43,457 nucleotides of DNA from a virus: IMG/VR virus record IMGVR_UViG_3300002858_000001, positions 1 through 43,457 of that record. The stretch is one strand, 5' to 3'. Both the position numbers and the translations under genes were made by a program. Positions 5,321-43,260 of this stretch are shown here, one piece after another. The notes below the pieces were generated by a model. It ran no database searches and was not told where the DNA came from. It saw only the letters and a list, made by a program, of their open reading frames with translations. Each line of letters opens with the position of its first letter. The first letter of the stretch is position 1.

Positions 5321-5335
5321 GCGAACCCGGTTCGT
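5321..5335. repeat. Dispersed palindrome copy 1 (GCGAACCCGGTTCGt, 14/15)
   Basis: Lies in the leader between the AT-rich promoter/operator island and the first early-left gene. An extra half-site CCGAACCGG abuts it at 5313..5321. Confidence 0.85.
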
Positions 5336-5339
5336 CGGG

Positions 5340-5440
5340 GAACATGCATAAGATGCATATTTGATGCAAGCAAAAATATGCATCAGATGTATTTTGAAAT
5401 ATTTTCGCCATGTATTTTTCAATGAAACTTGTGTCATCAA
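5340..5440 (-). promoter_or_regulatory. AT-rich promoter/operator island for early-left operon (PL/OL-like)
   Basis: Strikingly AT-rich island in a GC-rich genome. 11-bp perfect inverted repeat GATGCATATTT (5352..5362) / AAATATGCATC (5374..5384). ATGCAT occurs three times. ATGTATTTT occurs at 5387..5395 and 5410..5419 and recurs at 6016..6025. A possible minus-strand promoter is TTGCTT-N17-TATGCA. Confidence 0.6.
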
Positions 5441-5446
5441 CTGCGC

Positions 5447-5468
5447 AAAACCCCGCGCCATGGCGGGG
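5447..5468 (-). terminator. Rho-independent terminator after repressor gene
   Basis: Minus strand reads CCCCGC-CATGGC-GCGGGG followed by TTTT, about 80 nt downstream of the repressor stop. Confidence 0.55.
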
Positions 5469-5545
5469 ATTTCAAGGCGAAATGGATTTGGGAAATACCG
5501 AAGGGCGCACGCGGGCCCGCGCACCTGGACGCGGCCGGGGCGTTT

Positions 5546-5923
5546 CTACTCTGCGGCGGGTGGCAGGTTTGGCGCGAAGGCGTCTTTAAGGCTATCCAGC
5601 GTGCTGGAAACGATTGGCCAGAACCGGGGGCTGGAACGCAGTGACTCGATCAGCCCGCGTTCGCGGTCTGTGAGCCCGTCGCCATCTTCCACCAGTTCGG
5701 CCGGGGGAACGTCAAGGATTTCCGCGAGCTGCAGCAATTGCTTTACGGTAATATCAACCTTGCCCCGCTCCCATCTGGCCAGCGTCGGCTGGGATATATT
5801 GAGCGCTTCGGCAAGGCTTTCCTGTGTAAAGCCCGCTTTGACCCGTGCGTCACGGATGCGCAGCCGACTTTGGGCGTCGGACTTTGTGTAGGGGCCACGA
5901 GTCGCCATACCCCATAATGACAT
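5546..5923 (-). CDS. XRE-family HTH repressor (cI-like)
   Basis: RIRDARVKAGFTQESLAEALNISQPTLARWERGKVDITVKQLLQLAEIL is a classic XRE/Cro-C1 HTH. It is divergent from a Cro-like gene. Start is the ATG at 5923 or 5908. The annotated 265-aa ORF start was rejected. Confidence 0.85.
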   Translation of the reverse strand: MSLWGMATRGPYTKSDAQSRLRIRDARVKAGFTQESLAEALNISQPTLARWERGKVDITVKQLLQLAEILDVPPAELVEDGDGLTDRERGLIESLRSSPRFWPIVSSTLDSLKDAFAPNLPPAAE

Positions 5924-6042
5924 TGGCTTGTTACGCGAAACAGAACACCGCGCGTATATTTCAGTCGTCTGGGGTTGCTCAAAAATCCGAATCACCTTTT
6001 CCAAATATACGTAATATGTATTTTTAGGGAGGGGTTTCAACC
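5924..6042. promoter_or_regulatory. Divergent promoter/operator region of the immunity switch (OR-like)
   Basis: Inverted repeat CGTATATTT (5953..5961) / AAATATACG (6003..6011). ATGTATTTTT at 6016..6025 is shared with the OL-like island. SD AGGGAGGGG lies before the ATG at 6043. Confidence 0.6.
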
Positions 6043-6318
6043 ATGAGGCGACTTGATGCTTACCGGCGCGGGCGCGGCTGGACATATGACCAGCTTGGTG
6101 ACCGGCTGGGGCGCACCGGCGTCCAGTGTGGCCGCTATTGCAGGGGGGAAAGTCACCCCAGCCTAGAAATTGGGCAGAAACTGGCTCGCCTGTCAGATGG
6201 TGCTGTCCATTTGGGCAATTATCACGATGACCTGCCGGAAGCGGAAGCCGAGGCCATGATTGCCCGGCTGCGTCAGGCAGACGCCCAGACCGCCAAGGCG
6301 GCCGGGGGCATGTCATGA
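6043..6318 (+). CDS. Cro/CII-like HTH regulator
   Basis: 91 aa. GWTYDQLGDRLGRTGVQCGRYCRGESHPSLEIGQKLARL is HTH-like. First gene of the rightward operon, with a strong SD. Confidence 0.7.
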   Translation: MRRLDAYRRGRGWTYDQLGDRLGRTGVQCGRYCRGESHPSLEIGQKLARLSDGAVHLGNYHDDLPEAEAEAMIARLRQADAQTAKAAGGMS

Positions 6319-6536
6319 GCGTGTTTCTGACCGCGTGGGCCATTTACCTGTTGGGGTGGCCGTTCGCCGTGGCGATCATCTGGCACCGGCTGCGCACGCA
6401 ATACGTAGCCGCCAATGGTCTGGCCGATGTAAACAGTGAGCCGGTGCGCGTCAGGCATCTGAAAATGGCCGTTCGGGCCGCCCATGTCTGGCCTGCCAGC
6501 CTGCTGTTTTCCGGGGGCGCCAATGGCCCGGCATAG
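6315..6536 (+). CDS. Small membrane protein
   Basis: ATGA overlap with the upstream gene. Hydrophobic segment FLTAWAIYLLGWPFAVAIIW. Confidence 0.55.
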   Translation: MSVFLTAWAIYLLGWPFAVAIIWHRLRTQYVAANGLADVNSEPVRVRHLKMAVRAAHVWPASLLFSGGANGPA

Positions 6537-6738
6537 CGGCAATTACTGCAACGACTGCGCGTGGCCATATGAGTGTGCGGCCGCCCGCAATTGCCATAGG
6601 CGAGATCTGGGGCAGGTGCGCAGCGCAGCCCCGGCCGGGCGCGGGCCATCGGTGCCGCTGCAGGCGCTGCCCAGCGAGGCGGATCATGTGGGCGCGATCA
6701 TACGGGCGCCGAAGCTGCAGGCCGGGGGCAGATCATGA
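6523..6738 (+). CDS. Small Cys-rich (zinc-ribbon-like) protein
   Basis: Internal ATG at 6523. YCNDCAWPYECAAARNC cysteine cluster. ATGA overlap with the next gene. Confidence 0.45.
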   Translation: MARHSGNYCNDCAWPYECAAARNCHRRDLGQVRSAAPAGRGPSVPLQALPSEADHVGAIIRAPKLQAGGRS

Positions 6739-7379
6739 CCCGGAACGCAACCCATACCATGCACGGCCGCGCTGACCTGGACGAGATCGGCGCGGCCGAA
6801 TTGTACGAAACGCCAGTGGCCGCCACGCGGGCCCTTTGCCGGGCTGACCCGTGGTTGCGCGCCCAGCCGCGCATGATCTGGGACCCGGCCTGCGGCCCCG
6901 GCGCAATTGTGGAGGCGGTGCAGGCTGAGGGGCACAAGGCCAAGGCGTCAGACCTTTACAAGTACGAGGGGCGCTGGCGCGGCCAGCCGGGCACGCGGCG
7001 GCGCTGGGGCCATGACTTCCTGAAAGTGAACCCGGCGCACCGGGTCTTTGTTCACGACGCCATCATCATGAACCCGCCTTATTCGATCAAGGATGACTTT
7101 CTACTGAAGGCCATGGACGTCAGCCCGCGCGTTTATGCGCTGCTGGAGGTGACGTGGCTGCAGGGCGGCACGCCCGCCCGTGACGTGCTGCTGGATAGCC
7201 CGCACTGGATTGGTTTTTATCCGTTCCGTGAGCGGCTGAATGAGATGCACCGCGACGGCTTTGAAGGGCGCAAATCTGACCAGCCGCGCCGTCATGCGTG
7301 GTTTGTATTCGGAAGGATTGGAACGCCTGACGGGCCGAAGGTTCGCCGGTTGTCTTTGCAAGGAGGGGCGGATGCCTGA
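6735..7379 (+). CDS. DNA N6-adenine methyltransferase (small, orphan)
   Basis: Motif I-like DPACGPGAIVEAV and motif IV IIMNPPYS (NPPY). No adjacent endonuclease. Confidence 0.75.
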   Translation: MTRNATHTMHGRADLDEIGAAELYETPVAATRALCRADPWLRAQPRMIWDPACGPGAIVEAVQAEGHKAKASDLYKYEGRWRGQPGTRRRWGHDFLKVNPAHRVFVHDAIIMNPPYSIKDDFLLKAMDVSPRVYALLEVTWLQGGTPARDVLLDSPHWIGFYPFRERLNEMHRDGFEGRKSDQPRRHAWFVFGRIGTPDGPKVRRLSLQGGADA

Positions 7380-8336: not shown

Positions 8337-8707
8337 TGCCCGCATGTGAGATTGAGCGCCGCGCGCGTGAGGCGCAGGCGGCCGTCACGTTTGGCGAGGT
8401 GGCGTGGGCGCTGGGCGTGCCCGGATCAAGCCGCGCCGGGTGGAACTGCCCGCGCTGCGGCGGCCAGAACACGCTGCAGGAAGACACGTCCACCGGCAGC
8501 GGGGCATGCGTTGCGGATGGCTGCAAGGCCAAGCCGGGCAAGCTGTTTCTGGTCATGGCGGTGCGCGGCGTTTCGTTCCTGGACGCGATTGCGTGGCTCG
8601 AAACCTACACCGCGCACGCCAAGCGCCCGGCCTATCAGCCAGACCTGAAGGCAGTGCAGAACTTCCCACCCCTGATGAAAGGAGACGGCCCGCATGGCCA
8701 AGAATAA
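8336..8707 (+). CDS. Zinc-finger protein (CHC2 primase-zinc-finger-like)
   Basis: TGATG overlap with the upstream gene. WNCPRCGGQNTLQ...GACVADGCKAKPGKLFLVMAVRGVSFLDAIAWL resembles the DnaG-type zinc-finger layout. No Toprim domain is present. Confidence 0.55.
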   Translation: MPACEIERRAREAQAAVTFGEVAWALGVPGSSRAGWNCPRCGGQNTLQEDTSTGSGACVADGCKAKPGKLFLVMAVRGVSFLDAIAWLETYTAHAKRPAYQPDLKAVQNFPPLMKGDGPHGQE

Positions 8708-9836
8708 AACAGCGGGCCGCCACGGCCTTACCTTCACGGCAGACGCTGCCGAACTGCAGAAAGTTCTAAGCCGGGTGCAAGCGGGGATTGTGCGCAAGGC
8801 ACAAATTCCAATCCTGCTAAACGTGCTGATCGAAGCCGACCCGGACCTTGGCGTCAGCTTCTACACCACGAACCTTGACCAGCAGGCTGAAACCGGGCTG
8901 GGCGCCGATGTGGCAGACGTGACGGCCGGGGGCGCCACTACGGTGGACGCGGCCATGCTTCACAATCTGGTTGGCAAGATGAAAGGCGAAGTCACCCTGT
9001 CGATGACGGGGGAGCACCGGCTGGGCATTTTCTGCGGCAAGGCCAAGGCCGAACTGCCCACCCTTCCGGCTACGGATTTTGTGAAGCTGGGCAGCATTGA
9101 TGACGCCGTGTCATTCGAGATTGCAGGCGGAATGCTGGCCAGCGGGCTGAATTCGGTGTCCCACGCGGTCAGCAGTGAGGAGACGCGCTATTATCTGAAT
9201 GGTGTGCTGATGGAGCACCGGGGCGGCCAGTTGCTGTTCACGGCCACCGATGGGCACCGGCTGGCACACATAGCAGTTACAGCCAGCGGCCATGAACTGG
9301 CGCCCTTCGAGCCCGTCATTGTGCCCCGCTGGGCGTTGGCGCCGCTTGTCAAGCTGGCCGGTCTGGGAACGGACCCGGTCGTGCTGTCAATCGGCCAATC
9401 CATGATGCAGTTGACGGCCGGGCGTGATGCCTTCCGCGTCAAGCTGGTGGACGGCACGTTTCCTGACTATGGCCGCGTGATCCCGAAACCGCCTTTCAAG
9501 TTCACGCAGACCGTGCCGGTGGCTGAAGCCCGCGAAGCGGTCAACCTTGCGATTGCGGCGACCACGGAGAAATCCAACGCAGTCAAGCTGACTGGCGCGG
9601 ATGGGAAGCTGACCGCCCATGTGCAGCAGGACGGCAAATGGGTGGAAGCGTTCATGGAGCACCCTGACATCGTGGACGCTGCGCCCATCGGTGTGAACGG
9701 CAAGTATCTGGTGGCCGCGCTGGACCGCGTCTCAAGTTCGGAAATCAGCCTGAATTACAGCGACGGGCAATCGCCCATGCTGCTGCAGCGTGAGGGCGAC
9801 GCCCTTGTTCAAGTCATCATGCCACTGAGGGTGTAA
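8694..9836 (+). CDS. dnaN: DNA polymerase III beta sliding clamp homologue
   Basis: 380 aa with the three-domain length expected. Motifs IPILLNVLIEA, EETRYYLNGVLMEH, LLFTATDGHRLAH and FPDYGRVIP are typical of DnaN. Confidence 0.85.
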   Translation: MAKNKTAGRHGLTFTADAAELQKVLSRVQAGIVRKAQIPILLNVLIEADPDLGVSFYTTNLDQQAETGLGADVADVTAGGATTVDAAMLHNLVGKMKGEVTLSMTGEHRLGIFCGKAKAELPTLPATDFVKLGSIDDAVSFEIAGGMLASGLNSVSHAVSSEETRYYLNGVLMEHRGGQLLFTATDGHRLAHIAVTASGHELAPFEPVIVPRWALAPLVKLAGLGTDPVVLSIGQSMMQLTAGRDAFRVKLVDGTFPDYGRVIPKPPFKFTQTVPVAEAREAVNLAIAATTEKSNAVKLTGADGKLTAHVQQDGKWVEAFMEHPDIVDAAPIGVNGKYLVAALDRVSSSEISLNYSDGQSPMLLQREGDALVQVIMPLRV

Positions 9837-10200: not shown

Positions 10201-10707
10201 ATGTGTGCATCAACATGGTTTGAACAGTATGCGGAAAGCCGCCCGGCCGACTTCGCCATCGGCCCGGTGGGCGAGCCCTATTTGCTGCGTTGGTATCTGA
10301 CCCCGCGCAGCGATCTGGGCGGCATATACCTGCACCGCTTCCTGCGCGATGATGACCCGCGCGCCTATCACGACCACCCGTGGGACAGTGTTTCCATTGT
10401 GCTGTCAGGCATGCTGCTGGAACGGCGCCCGCGTCTGGGCGACCGCTTCCTGATGCCGGGCGATATTGTGAAGCGCACCGCAGAAATGCAGCACCGGCTG
10501 GAAGTCATCGAGCCCGGTTACACCTTGTTCCAGTTCGGGCCGAAAGTGCGCGAGTGGGGTTTTCAGTGCCCGGAAGGCTGGCGCCACTGGACGCGGTACG
10601 TTGACGGGCTGGGCCGTGGGCAGGTGGGGATTGGCTGCGGCGAGTATGGTGACCCGGAAACTGAGGCCACGCCGCTGGGCGAGGAGCCAAAAGGGGGGCA
10701 CTCATGA
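10201..10707 (+). CDS. Hypothetical protein (HDHPW motif, cupin-like?)
   Basis: 168-aa ORF. YLHRFLRDDDPRAYHDHPWDSVSIVLSG. Function unknown. Confidence 0.6.
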   Translation: MCASTWFEQYAESRPADFAIGPVGEPYLLRWYLTPRSDLGGIYLHRFLRDDDPRAYHDHPWDSVSIVLSGMLLERRPRLGDRFLMPGDIVKRTAEMQHRLEVIEPGYTLFQFGPKVREWGFQCPEGWRHWTRYVDGLGRGQVGIGCGEYGDPETEATPLGEEPKGGHS

Positions 10708-11099
10708 CTGGGGCGATTGATAGCGGCCGGGGCTTTCTGTCAGGAACGCTTAGGGCTGACCATATCACGCAAGGCGGCATCCGCTTTATGGGTGACTGGG
10801 AGGCGCACCTGGAAAGGCAAAAGGCTTGGTCGCTGGCAACGTTCGGCCCGGAGCCGCGCTTGTCTGGTGTCATTGACCATTTGCGCCGGGAACTGATCGA
10901 ACTCGAAGCCGAGCCGCTTGATCTGGAAGAATGGGCGGACGTCATCCTGCTGGCCATGGATGGCGCATGGCGGGCCGGTCACGCGCCTGCGGAAGTGGTG
11001 GCAGCCGTCAAGGCGAAGCAGGCCAAGAATGAGGGCCGGACGTGGCCTGACTGGCGCACCGCAGACCCCGACAAGGCCATTGAGCACGTCAAAGGCTAA
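10704..11099 (+). CDS. DUF550/MazG-like dNTP pyrophosphohydrolase-like protein
   Basis: ATGA overlap with the upstream gene. HLRRELIELEAEPLDLEEWADVILLAMDGAWRAG...KAKQAKNEGRTWPDW resembles the phage dATP/dGTP pyrophosphohydrolase (DUF550) pattern. Confidence 0.5.
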   Translation: MTGAIDSGRGFLSGTLRADHITQGGIRFMGDWEAHLERQKAWSLATFGPEPRLSGVIDHLRRELIELEAEPLDLEEWADVILLAMDGAWRAGHAPAEVVAAVKAKQAKNEGRTWPDWRTADPDKAIEHVKG

Positions 11100-12078: not shown

Positions 12079-12093
12079 GCGAACCCGGTTCGC
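12079..12093. repeat. Dispersed palindrome copy 2 (GCGAACCCGGTTCGC)
   Basis: Intergenic. Ends 20 nt before the ATG at 12114 of the replication-initiator-like gene, immediately before its SD. Confidence 0.9.
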
Positions 12094-12113: not shown

Positions 12114-13130
12114 ATGTCAAGAGAAGCGGTAAACATCATCAAGGATTGTGTGCTGGAGTCGGGCGGCCGCCAGCAATTGCTGGAAGCCTTGGCGCACTAC
12201 ATGCACGAGGACACCGGGCTGGCGCGGGTATCGCTGACCAGTCTGGAGCCCATCACGCGGCTAAAGGAGCGCCGTCTGCGCCAGCTGCGCGACGAATTGC
12301 TGGCGCCTGACACCGGCCATGGATTGCTGCAGGAAGTGCAACCAGCCGCACGCGGACGAAAGCGCCGCGCGGACCCGGCCAGCGGGCTGGGCGTGTACTG
12401 GCTGAATTTGCGCAGGCTGGGCCCCGTGGCAGCGGCCGTGCGTGAGGCGCGCCGGGGCATCCATGCCGGGGCTGCGCGGGCCCTGAGTAAGTCAAAGCTG
12501 ATAGGCGCACCGGCCACATACGAAAACGCCCGGCGCGTCATCGAGGTGCTGCGCGATGCGGTGAAGGCCGAACACGAACAAGCGGTGTATCTGGAGCACA
12601 CCAAGCGAGCCAATGAACTGGCCGCGCGGGTCAGCGCGATTTCCGGCCAGCTTGATGTTCTGCAGGCCGTGGCCGAGGCCGATCTGGGCACCGAAAATGC
12701 GGCAATAATTGCCGGATTTAAACACGCTGAAACACGCCAGACTACGGAAGAAAGCGGCAATAATTGCCGAATTAATCCCGATAATTCGGCAACGGACGAC
12801 GTTAATTCGGCAATTTCGTGCAATTCCCCCTGCACCCCCTATAAGGAATTAACACCAAGGACTAACACCAAGGTGCGCGCAGGTGCGCGCGAGGCGGGTG
12901 TGGAATTTGAAGGGGGCGAAGGGCTGCTCCGGTCAGCCATCGAAACCGCCCAGCTGGGGGCAAGCGTGTGCCGCTGGCTGGAAGGGGTCACGGCCGTGGT
13001 GGAGGGCTCGGTGCTGGTGCTGCATGCGCCCGGCCGCCTGACCGCTGACCGCCTGCAGAACGAACTGGCCGGATCAATGGCCAAGCTGGTGCGTGCCCTG
13101 AATTTGGAAACCTACCGGGTGGAGGGCTGA
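12114..13130 (+). CDS. Putative replication initiator (lambda O-position) with internal iterons
   Basis: ATG at 12114 follows AAGGGGAG. The call is by position (after the immunity and modification genes) and by the AT-rich repeat cluster inside the gene. No family recognised by eye. Confidence 0.45.
   Translation: MSREAVNIIKDCVLESGGRQQLLEALAHYMHEDTGLARVSLTSLEPITRLKERRLRQLRDELLAPDTGHGLLQEVQPAARGRKRRADPASGLGVYWLNLRRLGPVAAAVREARRGIHAGAARALSKSKLIGAPATYENARRVIEVLRDAVKAEHEQAVYLEHTKRANELAARVSAISGQLDVLQAVAEADLGTENAAIIAGFKHAETRQTTEESGNNCRINPDNSATDDVNSAISCNSPCTPYKELTPRTNTKVRAGAREAGVEFEGGEGLLRSAIETAQLGASVCRWLEGVTAVVEGSVLVLHAPGRLTADRLQNELAGSMAKLVRALNLETYRVEG
12699..12826. repeat. Iteron-like repeat cluster, candidate origin of replication
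   Basis: GCGGCAATAATTGCCG at 12699..12714 and 12754..12769 is an exact 16-mer. TAATTCGGCAA occurs at 12782..12792 and 12803..12813, 21 bp apart. Inverted pair GCCGAATTA / TAATTCGGC. Further GCAATT(T/C)C units follow. The region is locally AT-rich. Confidence 0.55.
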
Positions 13131-13133: not shown

Positions 13134-14120
13134 ATGACCAGACCACGCAAGCGCCCGACCCTGACCGCCCCGCTGGGGCCTGACGGCCGCAAGGCCTTGG
13201 CCGACCGGGTGCAGCAGATCAACCAGCGTGGGCAGGAAGCCCGGCAAAGGCTGGCTGACACAACGGGCCGCAAGCCCGGCCGCGCACCGGTGGGCCGCAT
13301 CGTGCAGCAGGCGCGCGGCATCGCCCGGCAGCTGGAAAACGCCGAGGCCCGTGTTGAGCAGCTGGCCGCACGCGGGGCCTATGCCGAAGCCGACCGCATG
13401 GGCCGCACGGTTCTGGAACTGCGCCGGAAGCTGCGCAGCGCCGAAGCCGCAGACCGCAAGGCCAAGGAACGGCGCGGCGCCCTGGACCGCTTTGCGCGGC
13501 TGGTCAGCCGGTCTGCCGTGCTGGATGACTGGCACATGGCCGTGGCCGACCGGTGGCTGTTCATGATTGGCCAAGCCGTTGATGGCCTGATGCAGCGGGC
13601 GGCCGAGCCCGATGCCAGCGCCACCGATGCCGAGCCCGGCCAGCGGCGTGATCCCGTGACCGGCAGGCGCCTGCCTGACCCGGTGGAAGGCCCGGCCATG
13701 TTCGTGCGGGGGCGGAGTGTTCTGGATCGCTGGGGCCATGCCGTGCCGGTGTCAGCTGTCAAGAAACACGGCCGCAAGGTGCCGCCCACCTTTGACCCGA
13801 AAGCGCCGAAGCCAGCCAAGCGGGCGCCGGGCGATGGTGTGCCCGACCGGGCACTGCGCACCCGTGACCACGCAGACCGGCTGACGCGGGCCTTCGCCAA
13901 GGGCGTGACCGAGGCGGGTCATCCTGCGTGGGCCGATTCGGCGGGGCAGCGGGTCATTCTGGGCAATGAGACCCTGACCGGGGCGCTTAAGGCGCTGGGC
14001 GTGGGCGTCACGTCAAAAAATCTGCAGACGGCGCAAACCGCAATGGCGGCGGGGCTTTGTGAGGTGGCGCGGGCGCTTGGCATGGGGCTGCCAGACGGGG
14101 GCGCGTTGACGGATCAATGA
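13134..14120 (+). CDS. Hypothetical basic protein (last early-right gene)
   Basis: 328-aa Arg-rich coiled-coil N-terminus. Possible C-terminal HTH (LTGALKALGVGVTSKNLQTAQTAM). Function unknown (replication accessory or late regulator?). Confidence 0.6.
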   Translation: MTRPRKRPTLTAPLGPDGRKALADRVQQINQRGQEARQRLADTTGRKPGRAPVGRIVQQARGIARQLENAEARVEQLAARGAYAEADRMGRTVLELRRKLRSAEAADRKAKERRGALDRFARLVSRSAVLDDWHMAVADRWLFMIGQAVDGLMQRAAEPDASATDAEPGQRRDPVTGRRLPDPVEGPAMFVRGRSVLDRWGHAVPVSAVKKHGRKVPPTFDPKAPKPAKRAPGDGVPDRALRTRDHADRLTRAFAKGVTEAGHPAWADSAGQRVILGNETLTGALKALGVGVTSKNLQTAQTAMAAGLCEVARALGMGLPDGGALTDQ

Positions 14121-14230
14121 AAACGGTGTCCCTTCGCCATGTTGCAGGAATGCGGCCGGGCCGGGGGCTTCCCGCCCCCATCATCCTGGAGGCTCGTCCG
14201 CACCCTGCACAATCCCTGAGCAAAGCGCAG

Positions 14231-14289
14231 ACCAGACGGCATGAACGGCCGGGCCGATTTTTCCAATTGTAGGCCCGGCGCCGTCTGGT
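14231..14289 (+). other. Bipartite long hairpin in the early/late non-coding junction
   Basis: Outer stem ACCAGACGGC (14231..14240) / GCCGTCTGGT (14280..14289). Inner stem GCCGGGCC (14248..14255) / GGCCCGGC (14272..14279). 16-nt AT-rich loop. Confidence 0.7.
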
Positions 14290-14322
14290 GTTCGCGGTTG
14301 TGAGGTGTTTCTCCCTTTGACT

Positions 14323-14362
14323 GCCCCGCCCGCCCTAACCCGGCAGGCGGGGCCTTTTTTTT
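14323..14362 (+). terminator. Rho-independent terminator
   Basis: GCCCCGCC (14323..14330) / GGCGGGGC (14346..14353) followed by C and T8. Confidence 0.8.
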
Positions 14363-14516
14363 AGCGCGCGCAGGCCTTCGCGGGTCCTGTCCAGCGTCTG
14401 CACCATGCGGGCAGGCGAAGCGCGCGATGTTTTTTTAGTATCGGCAGCCCCGGAAAGCCTTGCGCAAGTTGGCGCAGGTTGCGCCCCGGCAGCCCCAAAC
14501 GAACCGGGTTCGCTCC
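14363..14516 (+). other. Candidate cos / terminase-recognition region
   Basis: Non-coding stretch directly upstream of a Nu1-like terS and GpA-type terL, the position cos occupies in lambda. 10-bp direct repeat CGGCAGCCCC at 14442..14451 and 14487..14496. Palindrome TTGCGCAA. The cleavage site itself cannot be identified from sequence. Confidence 0.3.
14499..14513. repeat. Dispersed palindrome copy 3 (aCGAACCGGGTTCGC, 14/15)
   Basis: Ends 3 nt before the terS ATG at 14517, occupying the position of a Shine-Dalgarno sequence. Confidence 0.85.
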
Positions 14517-15958: not shown

Positions 15959-15960
15959 CC

Positions 15961-18177
15961 ATGGCCGCCTTTTCCGCGTTGGCGCATGGCGCCAGTATCG
16001 TTTTTGCGCAGATCGCAATTTCAGCCGCTCCGCCACCGGAGTTGTCGGTTTCGCAATGGGCTGACCAGTTCCGAATGATCAGCGCGGAGTCCGGCTCCAA
16101 GTATCCCGGCAAATGGCGAACGGATCGCGTGCCGTATCTGCGCGAGCCCATGGATTGCATGGGGGTCAATCATCCGGCTGGCCGGGTTGTGGTGCGCGCG
16201 GGTGCGCAGGTGGGCAAAACGCAGGCCATGAACAATGCGCTGGCGCATATGGTGGACACCGCGCCGCGCGGGGCCATCCTGATGGCGCCCAGTCTCGACA
16301 AGTGCCAAGCGTGGAACCGCGAACAATGGGAGCCCATGCTGGAAGTGACCGAGGCGCTTAAGCTGAAAGTCAGGGCGAACCGTTCGCGGTCTGAGGAAGG
16401 TTCGTCGACCCGGTTCAAGCGTTTCCGGGGCGGCTTCCTTAAGCTGGTGTCGGCGTCAACCGCCAAGGAATTGCAATCGACAACGGCCGGGCTTTTGATC
16501 CTGGAGGAGCCCACCGATTACCCGTTTGACACGGATGGCCGGGGCGACCCGATTGATCAGGCGCGCCACCGGCTGGATGCGTGGGGGGAAGACGGAAAGG
16601 AAATTGCAGCCAGCACGCCCGGCGATAAGGGCAGCTGCCGGATTTCTGAAATGTACGAGGAAGGCGACAAGCGCCTTTTCTATCTGCCGTGCAAGGATTG
16701 CGGCGATTACGCGCCGTTGCACTTTGAGCATTTCCGCTGCGATGACCCGGAAGATGGCGCCAGCGATCCGGCGCCGTATTTCGTGCGCCCGTGCTGCGGT
16801 TCGATCATGCGGCAGGGAGATCTGCCCCGCGCGCTGGACGGCGGCGTCTGGCTGGCAACGTTTGAGACTGACGAGGACCGGAACCCGGCCCCGCCCTTGG
16901 TGGTGCCTGCGGATGATCTGGGCGAATGGCGCAAGCGCCCGCGCGAGGGGCGCTATCCTAGCTTTCATTTGTGGCAGGCTTACAGCCCATTTGCCAGCTG
17001 GCGCGCGATATGGGCCGGGCACAAGGAAGGCAAGGCGCATCCGGATAAGCAGCGCACATTTTACCAGCAGGTTCTGGCCGAACCCTTCGAGCCGGTCATG
17101 GACCGGCCAAAGGCTGACCGGCTTGTGGAACTGGCGCGCCATCCGGCCACGGAAAAACTGGTGGGGCTGCGCCGGGGGATTATTCCGGACTGGTGCTGGA
17201 TGCTGACCGGCGCGGCCGATGTGCAGACCGACCGGATTGAGTGGGCCGCCTATGCGTGGGGCCCGATCAGCGACAAGGATTTCACGGCACCGGCCGGGGA
17301 AGTGGCGCCGGGCGTTCCGGCCACCTGTGGCGCCCTTGTTGATTGGGGCGTGATTTCGCTGCCACCAGATGACCCGCGCGCATGGGCCGAGCTGGCCATG
17401 GTGCAAAATCGCAAATGGCCCGGCCGCGCTTGCGTGCCGTTGACCTTTGATGATTTCGGCGTCGATACGGGCGGCCATTACACGCAGCAGGCTTACCAAG
17501 CGGCCGCGCGCAATATGGGCATGAAAGCCCTGAAAGGCCACAACAACCGGGAGTCCGGGCCGCTGGTCAAAGGCAGCCGGGTGCGCACGACGACCGGCAA
17601 GATGCGCGGGCGGGTCCAGCTTTGGCTGGTGGGTGGCCACAATCTGAAGCGCCGGGTGTATTACGGACTCGGGCAAGCCTTCGCATCTGTAGACATGGGC
17701 GCCGACCCCGGCGCGATGGCTGCAGGCCTGCGTGGCACCAATCGCCGCGAACCCGGTTCGCTGTTCCTGCCTCCGGAGATCAGCCTTGAAATGGCTGAGC
17801 AGATCACGGCCGAATACCTGACGGAAAAGTCAGTCGGCGGCAAGCGCACGCTGGTCTGGGATAAGCCGAAAAGTCAGCCCAATGAGCAGCTGGATTTGGC
17901 GGTGTATTCAATGGCGCTGGCGACCCACCAGTCGCTTGACCGGAAGACATGGGCCGATTGGGCGGCGCTGGCTGATGCGCGCCGAAAGCCGGAGGAAGAT
18001 GACGCGGCCGGGCCGTTGGAGGCCTTGTGGTCTGGCAATGGTGACGCCCTGGACGTGGCGACCGAAAAAGAGAAACCGGCCCCGGTGGCCATTCCTGAAA
18101 CGCGCGTTTCCAACCCCACGCCAACAACCGGCAAAGTGCCGGAGTGGGTGCGGAAGATGCGCGCGCAGCATCAATAG
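15961..18177 (+). CDS. terL: Terminase large subunit, lambda GpA family
   Basis: 738 aa. SVSQWADQFRMISAESGSKYPGKWRTDRVPYLREPMDCMG and VVRAGAQVGKTQ (Walker A) closely parallel the lambda gpA N-terminus. Confidence 0.9.
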   Translation: MAAFSALAHGASIVFAQIAISAAPPPELSVSQWADQFRMISAESGSKYPGKWRTDRVPYLREPMDCMGVNHPAGRVVVRAGAQVGKTQAMNNALAHMVDTAPRGAILMAPSLDKCQAWNREQWEPMLEVTEALKLKVRANRSRSEEGSSTRFKRFRGGFLKLVSASTAKELQSTTAGLLILEEPTDYPFDTDGRGDPIDQARHRLDAWGEDGKEIAASTPGDKGSCRISEMYEEGDKRLFYLPCKDCGDYAPLHFEHFRCDDPEDGASDPAPYFVRPCCGSIMRQGDLPRALDGGVWLATFETDEDRNPAPPLVVPADDLGEWRKRPREGRYPSFHLWQAYSPFASWRAIWAGHKEGKAHPDKQRTFYQQVLAEPFEPVMDRPKADRLVELARHPATEKLVGLRRGIIPDWCWMLTGAADVQTDRIEWAAYAWGPISDKDFTAPAGEVAPGVPATCGALVDWGVISLPPDDPRAWAELAMVQNRKWPGRACVPLTFDDFGVDTGGHYTQQAYQAAARNMGMKALKGHNNRESGPLVKGSRVRTTTGKMRGRVQLWLVGGHNLKRRVYYGLGQAFASVDMGADPGAMAAGLRGTNRREPGSLFLPPEISLEMAEQITAEYLTEKSVGGKRTLVWDKPKSQPNEQLDLAVYSMALATHQSLDRKTWADWAALADARRKPEEDDAAGPLEALWSGNGDALDVATEKEKPAPVAIPETRVSNPTPTTGKVPEWVRKMRAQHQ
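17747..17761. repeat. Dispersed palindrome copy 4 (GCGAACCCGGTTCGC)
   Basis: Inside terL. Read in frame as R-E-P-G-S-L. Confidence 0.9.
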
Positions 18178-23209: not shown

Positions 23210-23224
23210 GCGAACCGGGTTCGC
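23210..23224. repeat. Dispersed palindrome copy 5 (GCGAACCGGGTTCGC)
   Basis: Starts 2 nt after the capsid TAA stop. Followed by a second hairpin at 23229..23253. Confidence 0.9.
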
Positions 23225-24090: not shown

Positions 24091-24768
24091 ATGGTGGGCA
24101 GCCTGCAGTTTCAGGCCGCATTGGCTGGCAACCTGGACGGCTTCCAAAGTGATGTGCGCGCGGCCGTGGCCGAAGCCGGGCGCAGCACGCTGGACTCCAT
24201 CAAGGACAAGGGGCTGGTGCGGTTGCGCGGCTCCCTGCGTGATGCGGGGCTGGGCATGCTGGACAAGTCATGGCGTGCGGAGATCTACCCGCGCGATGGT
24301 AAGGCCATCGAGCCTGCCATCCTGTTTTATTCCAAGGCCGACCAGATTGTGCGCGCCAATGAGGGCGAAACCATCCGGGCGGGCAATGGCAAGAAACTGG
24401 CAATTCCAATACCGGGGAGCCCGGCCGAAAATTTCCCAAACCCGCGTGGCCCTGAAACCAAGGTGGATTATGCGCGCCAGAAATTCGGGGACCGCCTGTT
24501 TGTGATCCCGGCGAACCGGGTTCGCCCGGCGATCCTTGCCGCCGAAGGCGTGGGCCTGACCAAAACCGGCCGGGTGACACTCCGCAAAAAGACGAAAACA
24601 GGCAAGTGGGGCAAAGGCACCGCCACAATTTTCCTTTTCTGGCTGGTTGACGAGGCGGTGATGCAGCAGCGGCTGGATGTTGCGGCCGATTTTGAACGGA
24701 TTTCGCGGGAGTTCGAGAGCGAATACCCGCGCCAGCTGGCCAATGCGATCAAGCGCGCCGGATTGTAG
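24091..24768 (+). CDS. Hypothetical head-tail connector-region protein
   Basis: 225-aa ORF. ATG lies 1 nt after the upstream stop. Confidence 0.6.
   Translation: MVGSLQFQAALAGNLDGFQSDVRAAVAEAGRSTLDSIKDKGLVRLRGSLRDAGLGMLDKSWRAEIYPRDGKAIEPAILFYSKADQIVRANEGETIRAGNGKKLAIPIPGSPAENFPNPRGPETKVDYARQKFGDRLFVIPANRVRPAILAAEGVGLTKTGRVTLRKKTKTGKWGKGTATIFLFWLVDEAVMQQRLDVAADFERISREFESEYPRQLANAIKRAGL
24511..24525. repeat. Dispersed palindrome copy 6 (GCGAACCGGGTTCGC)
   Basis: Inside CDS 24091..24768. Read as A-N-R-V-R-P. Confidence 0.9.
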
Positions 24769-31666: not shown

Positions 31667-34600
31667 ATCGTCAGCACTGCCCCTAAAGGCGGTGCTGCGC
31701 GCCGACCCGTTCGATCCGAAACCGCCCCGGCTGGTGGATGTGCGCGCCGGAGAAACGCTTGCCCAGCTGGTTGACCGCATCGGCCTTGATCCGATTACGC
31801 GGCCGCTGGCCGTGGCTGTCATCGATGGCAAGGAAGTGCCGGAGTCCGATTGGGGCAAGGTGCGCCTGCGCGATGGCGTGCATGTGGCAATCTGCATTGC
31901 GCCGCAGGGCGGCGGGGATGATGGCAACAAGCTGCTGACCACGGTGCTGACCATCTTTGTGATGGTGGCGGCGTTCTGGATTTCCGGGGGTGCACTGGCG
32001 CCCTATCTGGGCGCGGCGTTCGAGGCGGGCAAGGCGGGCGCGGTCATTGCGGGCGCGGCGGTATCGGCTGTCGGGTCTTTGGCCATCAGCGCGCTGGTGC
32101 CGCCACCGCAGGCGCCCGAACAAGACAAGATCAACCAAGTTTATGCCGTGGACGGCGCATCCAACAGGTTTGTGCCGTTCGACCCCATCATCCTAAGCGT
32201 GGGCACGCGCCGCGTGTTTCCGCGTCAGGTGGCGCGCGGGTATCAGGAATTAGTTGGTGACGACTTTTATTACCGCATGGTGGTGGAGTGGGGCCCCATC
32301 GGCGTGGCGCTGTCTGACATCAAGGTGGGTGAAACGCCTATTGAGAATATTGACGGCGTGCAGATGCAGCACCGGCTTACGGCCGATGATCCGCACCCCA
32401 CGCTATACCCGGCGCAAGTGTTTCAGGAGGAAGTCGGGGCCGCCCTGGAAAGCGCAAGCGATTGGGAAGGCCGGACAACCATTCCCGATGCCACGCAAGC
32501 GGCCATTGTTATCGGGTTTCCGGCCGGGCTGGGGCACACATCAAAAAAGGGCAAGTCAGAACAATGGGCCGCGCAGGTGGAGGTGCGGTATCGAAGCGTG
32601 ACCGGCGAACCCGGTTCGCTGGTTTATGGCAGCTGGCAAAGCCCGCCCGGCAATGGGGTGTCATGGCCGACGCGCGGGGGCGTCTATCCCGGCGCGGGCA
32701 AGTATGGTTTCAGTGCAAAGAAACGCAGCCAGCCATTCTTCCGGGCCATCAATTTTGATTTCCCCAGCGCGGGCACCTACGAGGTGCAGGTGCGCCGTTC
32801 CAGCACCAATGAAGATGTGGACACCGACCGCACCTTCGATGACATGACCTTTCAAGTTCTGGAAAGCAGGCGGCCGGGCGTGCCGGTGGCGCGTGACGAC
32901 GTGGCCTATTCGGTTTTCCGGTTCAAGGGCAGCGATGAAACGCAAGGCCGCATCCAGACCATTAACGGTATGGTGTCGCGTCTCATTCCGCGTTTCAATG
33001 ATGCCCTGCTGGATGGCGGCGACCTGTCAACGGCCGGGCCGGAAGACATGACCGCGCCAGCGGCGTCCAGCAATCCGTGGGAAATCATTCTCTGGCTGTA
33101 TCGCAACGGGCTGGATGGGCGCGAGCCCCTGTCTGACAATGCCGTGGACTGGGCTAGTTTGGCCTATGCCGCCAAGGATGCGCGCGACAACGGCTGGACG
33201 TTCGATCATGTGTTTGAGGGCGCGGCCACCATCAGTGAAGCGGTGCAGACAATTGCTTTCAATGCGTGCGGCCGGGCGGCATTCATCGGCAACCGGCTGA
33301 CGGCCGTGGTGGATGGGCCCCAGCTGGCGCCCGTGGCCGTGATTTCTGACCGCAGCGCACGCAATGTCAAAGCGGTGAAGCAACTGTCGCGGCCGCCTGA
33401 TGGCTTCCGGGTCATCTTCGATGATGCCGCAGACGGATACCGCACGCGCGAGGAGCGCGTCTATGTGGGCGACAATACGGCCGCCACGGCGCGCCGGTTC
33501 GAGGAGTTGAAAATTCCGGGGGCGGTGCATTGGGATAATGTGCACCGGCTTGTCGGGCGCAACTATCGCAACAGCCGCATGCAGACCCGGCGCCTGAAAG
33601 CCGAAGTGCCGGTGGATGATCTGGACACGGCCGTGCGCCTTGGCCGGTGGGTGGGTGTGCAGACCAAGGTGGTGGAAGTGGGCCGCGCGGCCGGGTGGAT
33701 ACGCAGCGTCGAGACCAATGGCAGCGGGCACGTCACGGCCGTCATTCTTGACCAGCCTGTCAGCCAGACCGCTGGGGATGATCTGGTGTTGCAATGGAAC
33801 CGGCAGCTTAGCCCGGCCGTGTCCGAACAATTGTCCAGCGCGCTGGAACTGGCACCGGTGGGCGCTGACACTGTGGACGAGCGGGTAGTGTTTGCCAGCC
33901 CTGTCACGGGCGCAGACAAGCCGCAGGCAGGCGATGCTTACACATTCGGCGTTTCCGGCTTTGTGCGCCTTGATGGGCTTGTGGACGATATTGAGGCCAT
34001 CGACCATGAATGGGTGCGCCTGCACATGGTTGATTATGCGCCGGAGCGCTTCGATGAAACCGGGCTGGTCATTCCGGCCTACACCCCGGCATATGAGCGC
34101 CCGGCCTTTATCCGGCCGCCCGAGCTGGAACTGGTGTCGATTGGCCAGAACCTTGACCAGACAACAATTCATTTCCGCATCAAGCCCGGCGATCGCGGGC
34201 AAGCCGTGCGGTTCATTGCTGCGCGCGCGATCGCGCCGGACTCGGGGGATACTGAGGCGGGGGCATGGGATGCGCTGCCAGACCTGCAGGCGGCCGACCG
34301 CCAGCTGGTGGCGCCTGCCGGTCAGGCGGGTGACGCCTTCATATATCGTATTGCGGCGGTGAGCCCTTCCGGCGAGGCGGGGCCTTACCTGCTGGTCGAT
34401 GGCGTGCCCGCCCTGGACACGCTTCCGGCCCCGGATGATGTGCAGGCCGTGGCCAGTATCGAACACGGCGCCACGGGCGGCCAGCGGCCCCTGCTGACCG
34501 TTTCGGCCACGCCGGTGGAGGATGTGCAAATCGTTTCAATGGTCATTGAGGCGCGCCGGGTGGCGCTTGACCTGAATGACGCAAGGCTGCCGGAAGGCGA

Positions 34601-39626: not shown

Positions 39627-39651
39627 TCCCTAAGCAGAAATGGAGTTTGAT

Positions 39652-39996
39652 ATGTCTGGACCGAAGTCTGACACCGAAGTCATGCTGGAGGTGGCCATGC
39701 AGGGCATGCTGCCCCTGATGGCAAAACGCCTGCGCGGAAGCCCGAAATACGAGGCGCTGATTGAGAAGATGGCGCGCACCCGCGCATTCATCAAGGATGC
39801 GCAGGAAAACATTGACCAGAAAATGGCCGAAATGGAGCAGGACGCCAAAGACTTCCTGACCGATTTCGGTTTGGGTCAGGTTCTGGCTGACATCGATGCG
39901 GCCAGCCAGCGCATGGATGCGGCGGACTCCGATCCGGCCGCAACGCCCATGCGGCTGGTGCGCCCCAGCGAACCGGGTTCGCCGGGCGCGGAGTAA
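39652..39996 (+). CDS. Hypothetical soluble protein preceding the lysis genes
   Basis: The ATG at 39652 has GGAG 5 nt upstream. The ORF-track start at 39640 is also possible. No transmembrane segment. Confidence 0.55.
   Translation: MSGPKSDTEVMLEVAMQGMLPLMAKRLRGSPKYEALIEKMARTRAFIKDAQENIDQKMAEMEQDAKDFLTDFGLGQVLADIDAASQRMDAADSDPAATPMRLVRPSEPGSPGAE
39968..39982. repeat. Dispersed palindrome copy 8 (GCGAACCGGGTTCGC)
   Basis: Lies 12 nt before the stop of CDS 39652..39996. Read as S-E-P-G-S-P. Confidence 0.9.
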
Positions 39997-40001
39997 CGGC
40001 C

Positions 40002-41291: not shown

Positions 41292-41873
41292 ATGAAAATC
41301 ATGACCCTGATGGCGGCCACGCTGGCCGTGACCCTGACCGCCTGCGGAACACTTCAGGCGGGCCCCAGCGTCTTTAACAAGGACGCCTCGCCGCGCGCTG
41401 CTGCGGTTCAAGTCAAGGACGACGTCGGCCCGGCCGTGGCAGACCTTGCTGACCTTTGCGAAACCGGCTTGCTGTCTGCGGACGTCAAGGCCGTGGTCGT
41501 CAAGTACGGCCCCAAAATCCGTGAAGGCGTTGGCGCGTATGCGGACAGTGCTGAAGCCTGCGTCGTCATCGATGGGGCGTTGCAGACGGACCCGGCCGCA
41601 GGCGAACAATGCGCGCGCGGAACCGTCAAGGCGGTAACGTCCAGCCTGCCCAGATTGCTGATTGAGGCGGGCCGCAGCCTTGGCCTGGAAACGGGCACCG
41701 GATACCGGCTTTACATTGCGGGCTTCGCGGCCCGGCGCATCGTGGGCACAAACACGGGCGGCGTTATCGATGGTTTCAGCAAGGAGCCTGACTTGACCCG
41801 CGAGGAATATCTGGAAGTGTGGAAGCCGGTGCAGGCTGATGCTGACCGGCTGATGGCCTGCGCAGGGCGCTAG
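41292..41873 (+). CDS. Lipoprotein (193 aa)
   Basis: Internal ATG at 41292 follows GAGAAAGGA. Signal peptide with lipobox LTLTA-C. Too large for a typical o-spanin. Confidence 0.65.
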   Translation: MKIMTLMAATLAVTLTACGTLQAGPSVFNKDASPRAAAVQVKDDVGPAVADLADLCETGLLSADVKAVVVKYGPKIREGVGAYADSAEACVVIDGALQTDPAAGEQCARGTVKAVTSSLPRLLIEAGRSLGLETGTGYRLYIAGFAARRIVGTNTGGVIDGFSKEPDLTREEYLEVWKPVQADADRLMACAGR

Positions 41874-41892
41874 GCCTGCAATCTATCTGGAA

Positions 41893-41922
41893 GGGCCGCC
41901 CAGCGATGGGCGGCCTTTTTTT
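41893..41922 (+). terminator. Rho-independent terminator
   Basis: GGCCGCCCA - GCGA - TGGGCGGCC followed by T7. Confidence 0.85.
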
Positions 41923-41952
41923 GTGGGGTGAATTCAAGCGGAAGGGGTGCCA

Positions 41953-42651
41953 ATGTCTGCAGACGGTGCAAATTTGTTGCTAACGGAGGCTGGGGGCCTC
42001 ATTACAGGCGCGGCCGTCACGGCCGGGCTGGCGGGTCTGGGCTGGTTGTGGCGGGCGCAGCACCTTGGCCGTGCCCAATCGGCGGACCAGCAGGTGAAGC
42101 TATTGCAAAGTCTGGAAAGCAGGCTGGCCACGCTTGACCGGCAAGTCACGGAGCGAGATCTGCGGATTGATCACCTGATGGCCGAACGCCAGCAGCATGC
42201 GGAGCAGTTACTGCGCGCCAACCTAGCCCTCGCTGACAAGGCCACCCCGCCCGTTTCCACCCTTAAGGCGTTGATTGACAACGACCCCGGCCTGATGTTC
42301 GCCAAGCGCCGGATTGGGCCCGGCCAGTTTGTCATGGTGCGGGTGTCTCCGCTTTATGCGGAGTTGTATCTGGGCGGTTCGCCATATGATTATGACGGCA
42401 AGGCAGACTCGGAAATCTGGCCGCGCGCCATTGCCGAACACTTCGCGGAAAATGACGAGCGCATTTACCGCACGCAGAAAGGCGAATTTGTCAGGGAGCC
42501 TGCCAATAGCCCGTTCACGGGGGTCCGGGGCACCTTCCATGGCCGCAAGTATCCCGTGCAGCTGCATGACCGCGAGGACTACATAATCGCCGTTGGTGAG
42601 CATCTGACGCCCAATGATGACCAGCCGGAATTATTCAGTGCGGCGGCCTGA
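41953..42651 (+). CDS. Membrane-anchored coiled-coil protein with C-terminal PAS-like domain
   Basis: ATG at 41953 follows GGAAGGGG. TM helix LITGAAVTAGLAGLGWLW. Coiled coil QQVKLLQSLESRLATLDRQVTERDLRIDHLMAERQQ. The C-terminus DPGLMFAKR...VRVSPLYAELYLG...GKADSEIWPRAIAEHFAENDERIYRTQKGEF...RKYPVQLHDREDYIIAVGEH follows the PAS-fold pattern. No output domain. Confidence 0.6.
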   Translation: MSADGANLLLTEAGGLITGAAVTAGLAGLGWLWRAQHLGRAQSADQQVKLLQSLESRLATLDRQVTERDLRIDHLMAERQQHAEQLLRANLALADKATPPVSTLKALIDNDPGLMFAKRRIGPGQFVMVRVSPLYAELYLGGSPYDYDGKADSEIWPRAIAEHFAENDERIYRTQKGEFVREPANSPFTGVRGTFHGRKYPVQLHDREDYIIAVGEHLTPNDDQPELFSAAA

Positions 42652-42819
42652 CTGGCGCCGTTCCACTTCCTTGGCCAGCGCGGCGTCCACCAGTCTGGCC
42701 AGTTCCTGCACCTTGCCATTGCGGGCGGCCGGAAACAGCAGGCCGGTGCCAAGTTCATCAATGATCTGCTGCGCCTTGATGGTCTGCAACGCAAGGTAAA
42801 TGACGTCCATGCGTTTCAT
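42631..42819 (-). CDS. Hypothetical 62-aa protein
   Basis: Internal ATG at 42819, 17 nt downstream of the preceding minus-strand gene's stop. The 3' end overlaps the PAS-like gene tail-to-tail by 21 nt. Confidence 0.45.
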   Translation of the reverse strand: MKRMDVIYLALQTIKAQQIIDELGTGLLFPAARNGKVQELARLVDAALAKEVERRQSGRRTE

Positions 42820-42835
42820 GGGCTTGCTGGCCGGT

Positions 42836-43177
42836 TCACTGTTCCAGCTGTTTGGCCATGGCCCGCTCCAGCCGGGCCTTGTAAACCATGGCCGCGTTTT
42901 CCACCGCCTTGCGCTCGTCATCTGGCGCGGTCTGGTCAAGAAAGCAGCCAGATAAGGCCGGGTCTGAGAGTTTGCGCAGCACCGGCAGGCGGTCAATGTG
43001 GACGATGGTGTCGCATTCGCCCGCCCAGATATGGGCGCAGCTGGAAAGCCCCTCCGACTCGGTCAGGATTTCGGAAATGGTGCCGTTGGCATTAATGAGC
43101 GCATCGCCCGCGCACCACGCAAAGGCTGGGGCGGCGGGAAGTGTTGCCAGAATGGCTGCGGTGCAAATCGCTTTCAT
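42836..43177 (-). CDS. Secreted 4-Cys protein (113 aa)
   Basis: Internal ATG at 43177. Signal peptide MKAICTAAILATLPAAPAFA. Mature part has four cysteines. No family recognised. Confidence 0.5.
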   Translation of the reverse strand: MKAICTAAILATLPAAPAFAWCAGDALINANGTISEILTESEGLSSCAHIWAGECDTIVHIDRLPVLRKLSDPALSGCFLDQTAPDDERKAVENAAMVYKARLERAMAKQLEQ

Positions 43178-43245
43178 GGATACAGGACTAGGGTGCCCGG
43201 CCGGGTTTGGCAATTCCGGGGGCGCCCGGCGCGCACCTGGACGTG

Positions 43246-43260
43246 GCGAACCGGGTTCGC
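43246..43260. repeat. Dispersed palindrome copy 9 (GCGAACCGGGTTCGC)
   Basis: Intergenic, 69 nt upstream of the ATG at 43177 of the minus-strand accessory operon. Confidence 0.9.

Follow-up and report, generated by a model that had tools for sequence, protein, structure and literature searches.

The stretch of viral DNA analysed here (IMG/VR record IMGVR_UViG_3300002858_000001; 43,457 nt, 63% G+C), referred to below as the window, is a lambda-like temperate phage that carries nine dispersed copies of a 15-bp palindrome, GCGAACCSGGTTCGC. Judged by comparative sequence analysis, these nine palindromes are probably (with a rough probability of 0.72) the cognate sites, of a parS- or OB-like kind, of an orphan ParB clamp encoded by the phage itself (open reading frame (ORF) 1981-4095, minus strand). 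A first-pass annotation of the sequence had suggested a genome-wide set of protein-binding sites, with a ParB-like protein among the candidate binders, and this suggestion is upheld by the observation that the palindrome core travels with one ParB family across otherwise unrelated phages. A binding relation between the predicted protein and the palindromes appears likely in itself; a genome-wide transcriptional role resembling that of KorB or BisD is the function that we prefer, held at slightly less than even confidence, with positioning, compaction or organising, or shielding of the phage DNA as the alternatives on which to fall back.

A scan of the window allowing up to two mismatches recovered all nine of the previously reported copies and none in addition, with the same division into seven perfect copies and two that carry a single terminal mismatch. 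Dinucleotide-preserving shuffles of the window produced 0.00 exact copies and a mean of 0.30 copies at up to two mismatches, as compared to the seven and nine that are present, thereby confirming that the set exceeds chance. Neighbouring sites are separated by 1.3-8.1 kb without clustering and together span 38 kb; their density in the prophage is 2.1 per 10 kb. The sites are as follows:

Site 1, 5321..5335: GCGAACCCGGTTCGT, one mismatch; within the 5' leader of the ParB operon (transcribed leftward), 80 nt ahead of the first ATG (5241)
Site 2, 12079..12093: exact; intergenic, with the start codon (12114) of an early gene for a 338-aa product 20 nt further on
Site 3, 14499..14513: ACGAACCGGGTTCGC, one mismatch; 3 nt ahead of the terS start codon (14517), in the final stretch of the 396-nt intergenic region that follows the early-operon terminator
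Site 4, 17747..17761: exact; within terL (15961-18177), read as R-E-P-G-S-L
Site 5, 23210..23224: exact; 2 nt past the stop codon that ends the gpE-type major capsid gene (22168-23208)
Site 6, 24511..24525: exact; within the DUF6441 gene (24091-24768), phase 0, read as A-N-R-V-R
Site 7, 32605..32619: exact; within the gpJ-like tail gene (31629-35822), read as G-E-P-G-S-L
Site 8, 39968..39982: exact; inside the 3'-terminal 30 nt of ORF 39640-39996 and 20 nt ahead of the DUF1353 start codon (40002)
Site 9, 43246..43260: exact; intergenic, near the prophage's right end, ~70 nt upstream of the start codon (43177) of an accessory operon that has two genes and runs leftward

Five of the nine sites (5321, 12079, 14499, 23210 and 43246) are fully non-coding, and non-coding DNA constitutes 4.9% of the window as computed from a hand-curated gene map (binomial P = 3e-5). 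The genetic positions that had been reported for these five copies were recovered: site 1 is flanked by an AT-rich promoter/operator region on one side and by the opening gene of the leftward ParB operon on the other, site 3 abuts the start of terS (an assignment backed by phrog_57), site 5 directly follows the end of the gpE capsid gene and site 9 precedes the right-end accessory operon. For site 2 the position before the downstream gene (12114-13130) was correct, while the label of replication gene that had been given to it was not sustained by Pfam or PHROG. The proposed extension of the symmetry into CA...TG flanks was not confirmed either: it is one-sided in six of the nine window sites and missing from 140 copies on other phage contigs, among which no flank consensus beyond the 15-mer was found. 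In four of the five copies that are coding or overlapped by an ORF (17747, 32605, 39968 and 43246), the peptide E-P-G-S is read in the same phase, which suggests that reading frames accommodate the DNA site preferentially in one particular way. The 43246 copy is overlapped by an ORF that is probably no real gene.

The proposed binder is encoded at the left of the window:

1981..4095, minus strand: orphan ParB/Noc/KorB-type protein, 704 aa

A ParB_N domain (PF02195) was identified in this ORF by Pfam at 3.6e-18. Residues ~98-205 correspond to the ParB_N cytidine triphosphatase (CTPase) fold with its GERRWKA and ENQARDD (ENxxR) motifs, and residues ~206-300 to a helix-turn-helix (HTH) domain with the recognition helix TTRRNVQVNLQL. 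Residues G156, E157, R159, E197, N198 and R201 are invariant across the ParB family alignment, and PF17762 (HTH_ParB) matches relatives. Comparison with PDB by phmmer aligned residues 93-288, through the HTH, to Caulobacter ParB (6T1F), Spo0J (1VZ0) and Noc, with KorB as a weak match (1.8e-4). The AlphaFold model has a mean predicted local distance difference test score of 76, and its top Foldseek matches were Noc, ParB and KorB-KorA over ~210 residues only; Noc (7NG0, 7NFU) was the best structural match, and the KorB entries 8QA8 and 8QA9 were also matched. The C-terminal part (~300-704, ~400 aa) is confidently folded but has no relative in PDB or Pfam, and only 16 representative clusters among 1.84 billion proteins were retrieved with it. 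Residues 1-95 (3811-4095) form a disordered repeat tail rich in Lys, Ala and Pro (AAKKPAAKKPAAKKPATKAKAPAKPK...), reminiscent of histone-H1-like tails, and other ParB clades possess a MarR-like winged helix in the place of this tail. No ParA was detected, as no KGGxGK[ST] Walker A motif was present in any frame of the window and no ParA/CbiA Pfam match was obtained for the scanned ORFs; additionally, inspection of the window ParB translation by eye revealed no ParA-interaction motif (LG[KR]GL). By these features, the predicted product of ORF 1981-4095 is a true ParB/Noc/KorB-type protein without a ParA partner; with its conserved motifs it may also bind CTP and undergo site-stimulated clamp closure and sliding.

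The link between palindrome and protein was approached from the side of the motif and from that of the protein. The exact 15-mer is present in at least 119 IMG/VR stretches, and many contigs of ~40 kb carry three to seven copies; single matches in GC-rich viral DNA are expected by chance. Every window protein was compared by tblastn with the multi-copy loci and with 25 site-bearing loci gathered later, and ParB was the only one with a homologue in all 25 of the latter. Only a few of these loci share any one of the structural genes, the genes of the replication region, the repressor or Cro (three or four in the case of the last two). A viral scan with the single ParB protein recovered only a 96% relative, and family alignments were therefore needed; the alignment search yielded 79 viral loci, which were de-duplicated at 80% identity to 25 ParB clusters. 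The core CGAAC-N3-GTTCG occurs at least once in 20 and at least twice in 18 of these 25 clusters, amounting to 69 sites in 650 kb.

The positions of these sites follow a recurrent arrangement, with the site upstream of the ParB operon being syntenic in nearly all family loci. Hyphomonas prophages with full-length ParB homologues (38-42% identity) carry the same exact 15-mer at syntenic places, one in the ParB-operon leader and one ~20 nt upstream of the homologue of 12114-13130. Counterparts of site 2 upstream of the homologous early gene were located in L179 (2251), L186 (1275) and contig c403 (11797). Three Henriciella loci, which were reached by way of the integrase alone, encode family ParBs and contain two or three sites each, one of them just upstream of ParB. 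A second ParB subfamily, composed of an N-terminal winged helix, ParB_N and HTH_ParB, is accompanied by two to five sites in its four closest loci, and a third phage clade, defined by a shared structural protein, has four to seven sites per 21 kb, with a subfamily-B ParB at the edge of the locus wherever the sequence extends that far. In the case of the multi-copy contig 3300037043_000403 (L190), a ParB was predicted from the sites and then found in the remaining sequence. Conversely, phages that possess the same structural module but lack ParB have no sites.

The sites fall into two symmetric classes, with CCSGG or CGSCG at the centre, in which positions 7 and 9 change together, as would be expected for a site that is read by a dimer. 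Each centre class is tied to particular ParB clades, the Henriciella loci being of the CGSCG class beside their own ParB. The arms CGAAC/GTTCG are unchanged across phages whose ParBs are only 27-47% identical. Beyond these two classes, L211 (2780-19706) has GCGAAC-NNN-GTTCGC six times with a free centre. More distant members of the ParB family are without this core and have repeated palindromes of other sequence: L204 (3370-12836) contains CGCTCGAGCG seven times, dispersed over 14.7 kb, and in L216 (6703-7145), CGACA-N3-TGTCG is found four times, clustered 300-700 nt upstream of ParB. A one-residue specificity code (Asn versus His/Trp), which was promising within family A, was rejected on account of its failure in L196 and family B.

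The density of sites is retained between relatives, while their positions are not. Between L057 and the window, the proteins of the tail module share 57-75% identity, and the site positions differ: the window site in the J gene (GEPGSL) aligns to G-S-A-G-S-E in L057, which is not a site, and L057 has a site of its own in the neighbouring gene, where the window has none. Such turnover fits a loading site for a sliding clamp rather than a local cis-element. Contig c403 (rebuilt, 38.4 kb), whose ParB has 33% identity and whose late genes bear no relation to those of the window, has all six of its sites at gene boundaries, including the leaders of the ParB operon and of an early gene. Across the family loci, 72% of the sites lie outside deep-coding positions, against a background of 51% (P = 4e-4, in a crude ORF-based test that is limited by gene calling), which gives modest support to a boundary preference.

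In the control DNA, alphaproteobacterial loci of GC>=0.6 without ParB contained 0 sites in 519 kb, and phage loci with other ParB_N proteins (mostly GC 0.6-0.7) contained one site in 1.13 Mb; the chance estimate for the ten bases that the core specifies is about one per Mb at 65% G+C. In ~1 Mb from distant relatives of the clade-C structural protein, two singletons and one locus with three sites were found. In the host flanks beyond the integrase of L177, L179, L180 and L186 (~30 kb in total) 0 sites were found, as compared to the ~6 expected at prophage density. The annotation had proposed that motif densities in host and prophage be compared: copies were present in the site-bearing related phages and absent from the related-prophage flanks and the other alphaproteobacterial loci.

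The genetic setting of site 1 bears on when the protein might be made. Two sets of features surround it:

4846-5241, 4460-4960 and 4095-4460, minus strand: three small ORFs between site 1 and ParB, the last of which overlaps the ParB start
5340..5418: a 22-nt AT-rich quasi-palindrome (AAATATGCATCAGATGTATTTT-like), present three times here and a fourth time at 6003-6024 between the repressor and cro-like genes

From their location between site 1 and ParB, the three small ORFs probably belong to the ParB operon; they have no family assignment in Pfam or PHROG and are not conserved in other site-bearing phages. A conserved KorA-like partner was considered and rejected, as no homology links the small genes upstream of ParB in the window, L187, L188 and the HTH_3 group. 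A terminator closes the repressor gene at ~5445-5475 (minus strand), and next to it lies the AT-rich stretch 5340-5418; site 1 is situated 5 nt from the first operator-like repeat, and the first gene of the ParB operon then follows. The sharing of this repeat suggests that the 22-nt elements are likely operators of the immunity repressor, at a putative pL-like promoter that would drive the ParB operon. The GC-rich palindrome itself has no copy between the repressor and cro genes. Our inference is an early-left ParB operon under repressor control, with ParB feedback, the latter being suggested by the site in its own leader; since the operon is leftward and early, behind a promoter region that shares operator-like repeats with repressor/cro, ParB is probably produced upon infection or induction and not in the resting lysogen.

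In the mechanism that we propose, a ParB dimer would recognise the symmetric core CGAAC-CSG-GTTCG by means of its HTH domain. Site binding together with CTP would then cause the N-terminal gate to close into a clamp, as occurs in ParB, Noc and KorB, and the closed clamp would leave the site and slide along the adjacent DNA. As the sites are 1.3-8.1 kb apart, clamps of this kind would have all 43 kb of the genome within reach. Apart from site 1, sites lie at the starts or ends of transcription units: one precedes an early gene, one terS and one the accessory operon, and one follows the capsid gene.

Several points weigh against this interpretation. The link between ParB and the palindromes derives wholly from their co-occurrence, and five of the 25 ParB clusters lack the CGAAC-N3-GTTCG core. 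No ParB was seen in the sequence examined of two near-complete multi-copy contigs, 2919784490_000002 and 2851166323_000001, albeit that relatives place the ParB gene just past the predicted prophage (uncultivated viral genome, UViG) boundary. The recognition helix of CCSGG-class phages is R-N-[VI]-Q in one subfamily and R-[FYH]-[VI]-[EQ] in another, L196 (RHIQ) is of the CCSGG class, and no simple recognition-helix code emerged. Additionally, the host comparison draws on the flanks of related prophages and on other alphaproteobacterial loci in place of the host genome itself, and the choice of a regulatory role over positioning, compaction or protection is a guess from the placement of the sites.

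Another phage protein that travels with ParB, such as the product of the small gene preceding it, the immunity repressor or Cro, might instead bind the sites in the manner of stoperators or the phiC31 conserved inverted repeats (CIRs). This explanation is considered unlikely. A small gene does always overlap the ParB start, in L179, L180 and L186 this gene encodes an HTH_3 protein, and dispersed repressor operators exist in other phages (the L5 stoperators and the phiC31 CIRs); however, the small gene lacks homology between the groups named above, the repressor and Cro are rare among the site-bearing loci, no site separates their genes, and the immunity region carries AT-rich 22-nt repeats of its own. 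For the last of these reasons, and because neither protein is conserved among site-bearing phages, the repressor and TerS, both of which the annotation had named as possible binders, are disfavoured.

Binding by a host protein, for example a LexA-like factor, with the phages of the lineage simply sharing both the sites and ParB, seems less likely still. The core resembles the SOS (Cheo) box CGAAC-N4-GTTCG, and all carriers appear to be GC-rich and alphaproteobacterial; yet the spacing of the palindrome is N3 and not N4, and alphaproteobacterial LexA uses direct repeats, GTTC-N7-GTTC. The 519 kb of related genomic DNA and the ~30 kb of host flanks, both without sites, also speak against this explanation, as do the correspondence between site class and ParB clade and the missing sites in phages that have the same structural module without ParB.

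That the palindrome acts as an RNA or DNA hairpin, in messenger RNA processing or stability, termination, replication or packaging, is very improbable. A 6-bp stem with a triloop can form, and several copies are placed just after stop codons or just before ribosome-binding sites. This hairpin is weak, however (-5.9 kcal/mol), folds in context are no better than those of shuffles (z -0.3 to -1.6), no T-run follows the palindrome and Rfam gave no match. The invariance of the arms across divergent ParB phages is a further argument against an RNA stem, in which compensatory changes would be expected, while the would-be loop positions 7 and 9 remain complementary (C..G or G..C) in the two main classes.

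A signature of the host genome, be it a repeated extragenic palindrome, an uptake signal or an effect of composition, is scarcely plausible: the palindrome is GC-rich, and single copies occur on many GC-rich viral contigs, some of them as expected by chance, but the shuffles produced none, more than 2 Mb of GC-rich control phage DNA stayed at chance-level counts and host-type DNA had no copies, so that the host palindrome or uptake signal considered in the annotation is disfavoured. A restriction-modification or methylation target in the CCSGG core, also raised there, is barely credible, even though the phage encodes an N6_N4 methyltransferase (15230-15958) and 6735-7379 matches a PHROG family labelled DNA methyltransferase, because 15 bp far exceeds the length of methyltransferase sites, such enzymes are not common to the site-bearing phages, and the CGSCG centre of the sister class and the free centre of L211 indicate that CCSGG is not a conserved feature.

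Among known systems, KorB and its operator OB on the IncP-1 plasmid RK2 are alike in that both proteins unite a ParB-family CTPase fold with an HTH and in that OB (TTTAGCSGCTAAA) and the phage site are odd-length palindromes with a central S. OB is present on RK2 in 12 dispersed copies, and in both systems the sites are scattered over a mobile genome of 40-60 kb, at and away from promoters, and include the protein's own operon. In contrast, the window element is an integrated temperate phage and not a plasmid, its site sequence differs, and it lacks IncC/ParA and a conserved KorA-like partner. The window protein furthermore has no KorB-specific Pfam domains (ParB_N only) and its ~400-aa C-terminal domain is unrelated; by its predicted domains it is not of the KorB family proper, though it would work like KorB/OB. 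For KorB, CTP-dependent sliding from distal sites accounts for long-range repression (PMC11790492).

Noc of Bacillus is likewise an orphan ParB paralogue without ParA whose palindromic sites are dispersed over a whole replicon. Noc is encoded on the host chromosome, has a membrane-targeting helix and functions in division-site selection, whereas the window protein and its sites are phage-borne. Identical protein-binding sites, in dozens or a handful, are dispersed over the genomes of other temperate phages, as exemplified by the cluster A stoperators, the phiC31 CIRs and N15 sopC. Stoperators lack symmetry, follow the direction of transcription and serve as binding sites of the immunity repressor; the sopC sites are bound by SopB, which is of the ParB type, and N15 is a plasmid prophage with SopA/ParA. 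The window differs from all three, as its sites are symmetric, its repressor has candidate operators of its own and the phage integrates. Canonical ParABS partition was rejected, given that ParA and LG[KR]GL are missing, that the sites are spread over 38 kb and not clustered, and that an integrase is present and relatives are integrated by host genes.

BisD of ICEclc resembles the window protein, as far as its description goes, in being an orphan ParB-like protein on an integrated mobile element, and is described as a ParB-like CTP clamp with long-distance action on the element's own genes (PMC12409273). It is unlike the window protein in residing on an integrative and conjugative element (ICE) rather than a phage and in activating genes, the comparison being one of descriptions only. 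In Cluster O mycobacteriophages (Corndog), the perfectly conserved 17-bp palindrome TGTTCGG-N3-CCGAACA is dispersed in more than 30 copies, many at gene boundaries, and is unexplained; these phages also have a ParB-like protein and a DnaN clamp (PMC4351075). Their palindrome shares with the window sites the 3-bp centre, the dispersal and the gene-boundary copies. The half-sites, however, are of opposite orientation (GTTCGG...CCGAAC), the hosts are actinobacterial and the phages lack an integrase. Corndog gp90 was rejected as a member of the family (hhalign probability 22%; ParB_N Pfam 2.7e-06; no HTH by Pfam), and no Mycobacterium phage was among the ParB tblastn matches.

With regard to the remainder of the genome, a tyrosine integrase gene is located at the left end of the window, and the immunity region is composed of an HTH_3 repressor and a divergent cro-like gene. 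The late genes comprise a gpA-type terminase, gpW, a lambda-family portal, an S49 protease, gpD, the gpE-type capsid, a tail tube and gpJ. The early genes include a DnaN-type sliding clamp (8694-9836) and a PF04447 dATP/dGTP pyrophosphohydrolase (10704-11099), a family that occurs in phages altering their nucleotide pools. The two putative DNA methyltransferase genes are placed apart, that of the N6_N4_Mtase type being wedged between terS and terL and the early one (6735-7379) matching phrog_799. The intergenic region 14121-14516 (396 nt) contains a strong intrinsic terminator (~14326-14362, GGGGCC then T8); as terS follows it and the terminase is of the gpA type, cos and a late promoter are likely to be situated here. 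The accessory operon downstream of site 9 (42631-43177, minus strand) has as its first product a 113-aa protein with a signal-peptide-like N-terminus (MKAICTAAILATLPAAPAFA), a possible lysogenic-conversion or exclusion factor.

The last 62 bases of the window (43396-43457, GGAGAGGTGGCCGAGTGGCTTAAGGCGCGCCCCTGCTAAGGGCG...) resemble the 5' part of a tRNA-Ser(GCU) gene that is cut by the window end and are preceded by a promoter-like box, TATATATA; this stretch may mark the attachment site or prophage boundary. ARAGORN and Rfam called no transfer RNA (tRNA) at the right end or attachment site, probably owing to the truncation. The Hyphomonas prophages L179, L180 and L186 are all integrated beside recJ-glpX-hom (about 14000-22000), while L177 (the 93%-ParB relative) adjoins a cluster of 2OG-Fe(II) oxygenase and glycosyl hydrolase genes, indicating that integration sites differ within the group. 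The homologues of the integrase and ParB point to the Hyphomonadaceae (Hyphomonas, Henriciella) and other Alphaproteobacteria, and hence to a Hyphomonas-like alphaproteobacterial host. Neither a near-identical phage nor a close relative was found in GenBank, exact-sequence look-ups of the integrase and the capsid protein returned no record, and among cultured phages the capsid protein and ParB have solely distant relatives.

A literature search across 8 million full texts returned no occurrence of the motif strings, and no description of a ParB protein-plus-site system spread over whole temperate phage genomes was found in the literature. ParB-family CTP switches are known to act beyond segregation, in silencing genes of a plasmid (KorB), in activating genes of an ICE (BisD) and in counteracting silencing (VirB). 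According to a 2025 survey, ~1% of ParB homologues are prophage-encoded orphans, for which it proposed no function (PMC12704722). The window supplies a concrete and testable phage case, consisting of a protein, a probable 15-bp site, nine positions and natural specificity variants, and offers a rule whereby one site lies in the leader of ParB's own operon and the rest are distributed genome-wide at unit boundaries. In its widest form, in which we place about even confidence, our interpretation is that integrated temperate phages of Alphaproteobacteria possess an undescribed class of orphan ParB-CTPase systems ('phage KorB') that would load at 5-10 identical selected palindromes and coat or scan the genome early, either switching transcription programmes at that stage or shielding or organising the phage DNA; their specificity would come in two or more interchangeable classes, and their C-terminal effector domain would be new. 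Were this true, orthogonal ParB/site pairs would become available for DNA labelling tools, unexplained dispersed palindromes in other phages, such as those of the Cluster O mycobacteriophages, would find a general explanation, and long-range clamp-based control would join the regulatory repertoire of temperate phages.

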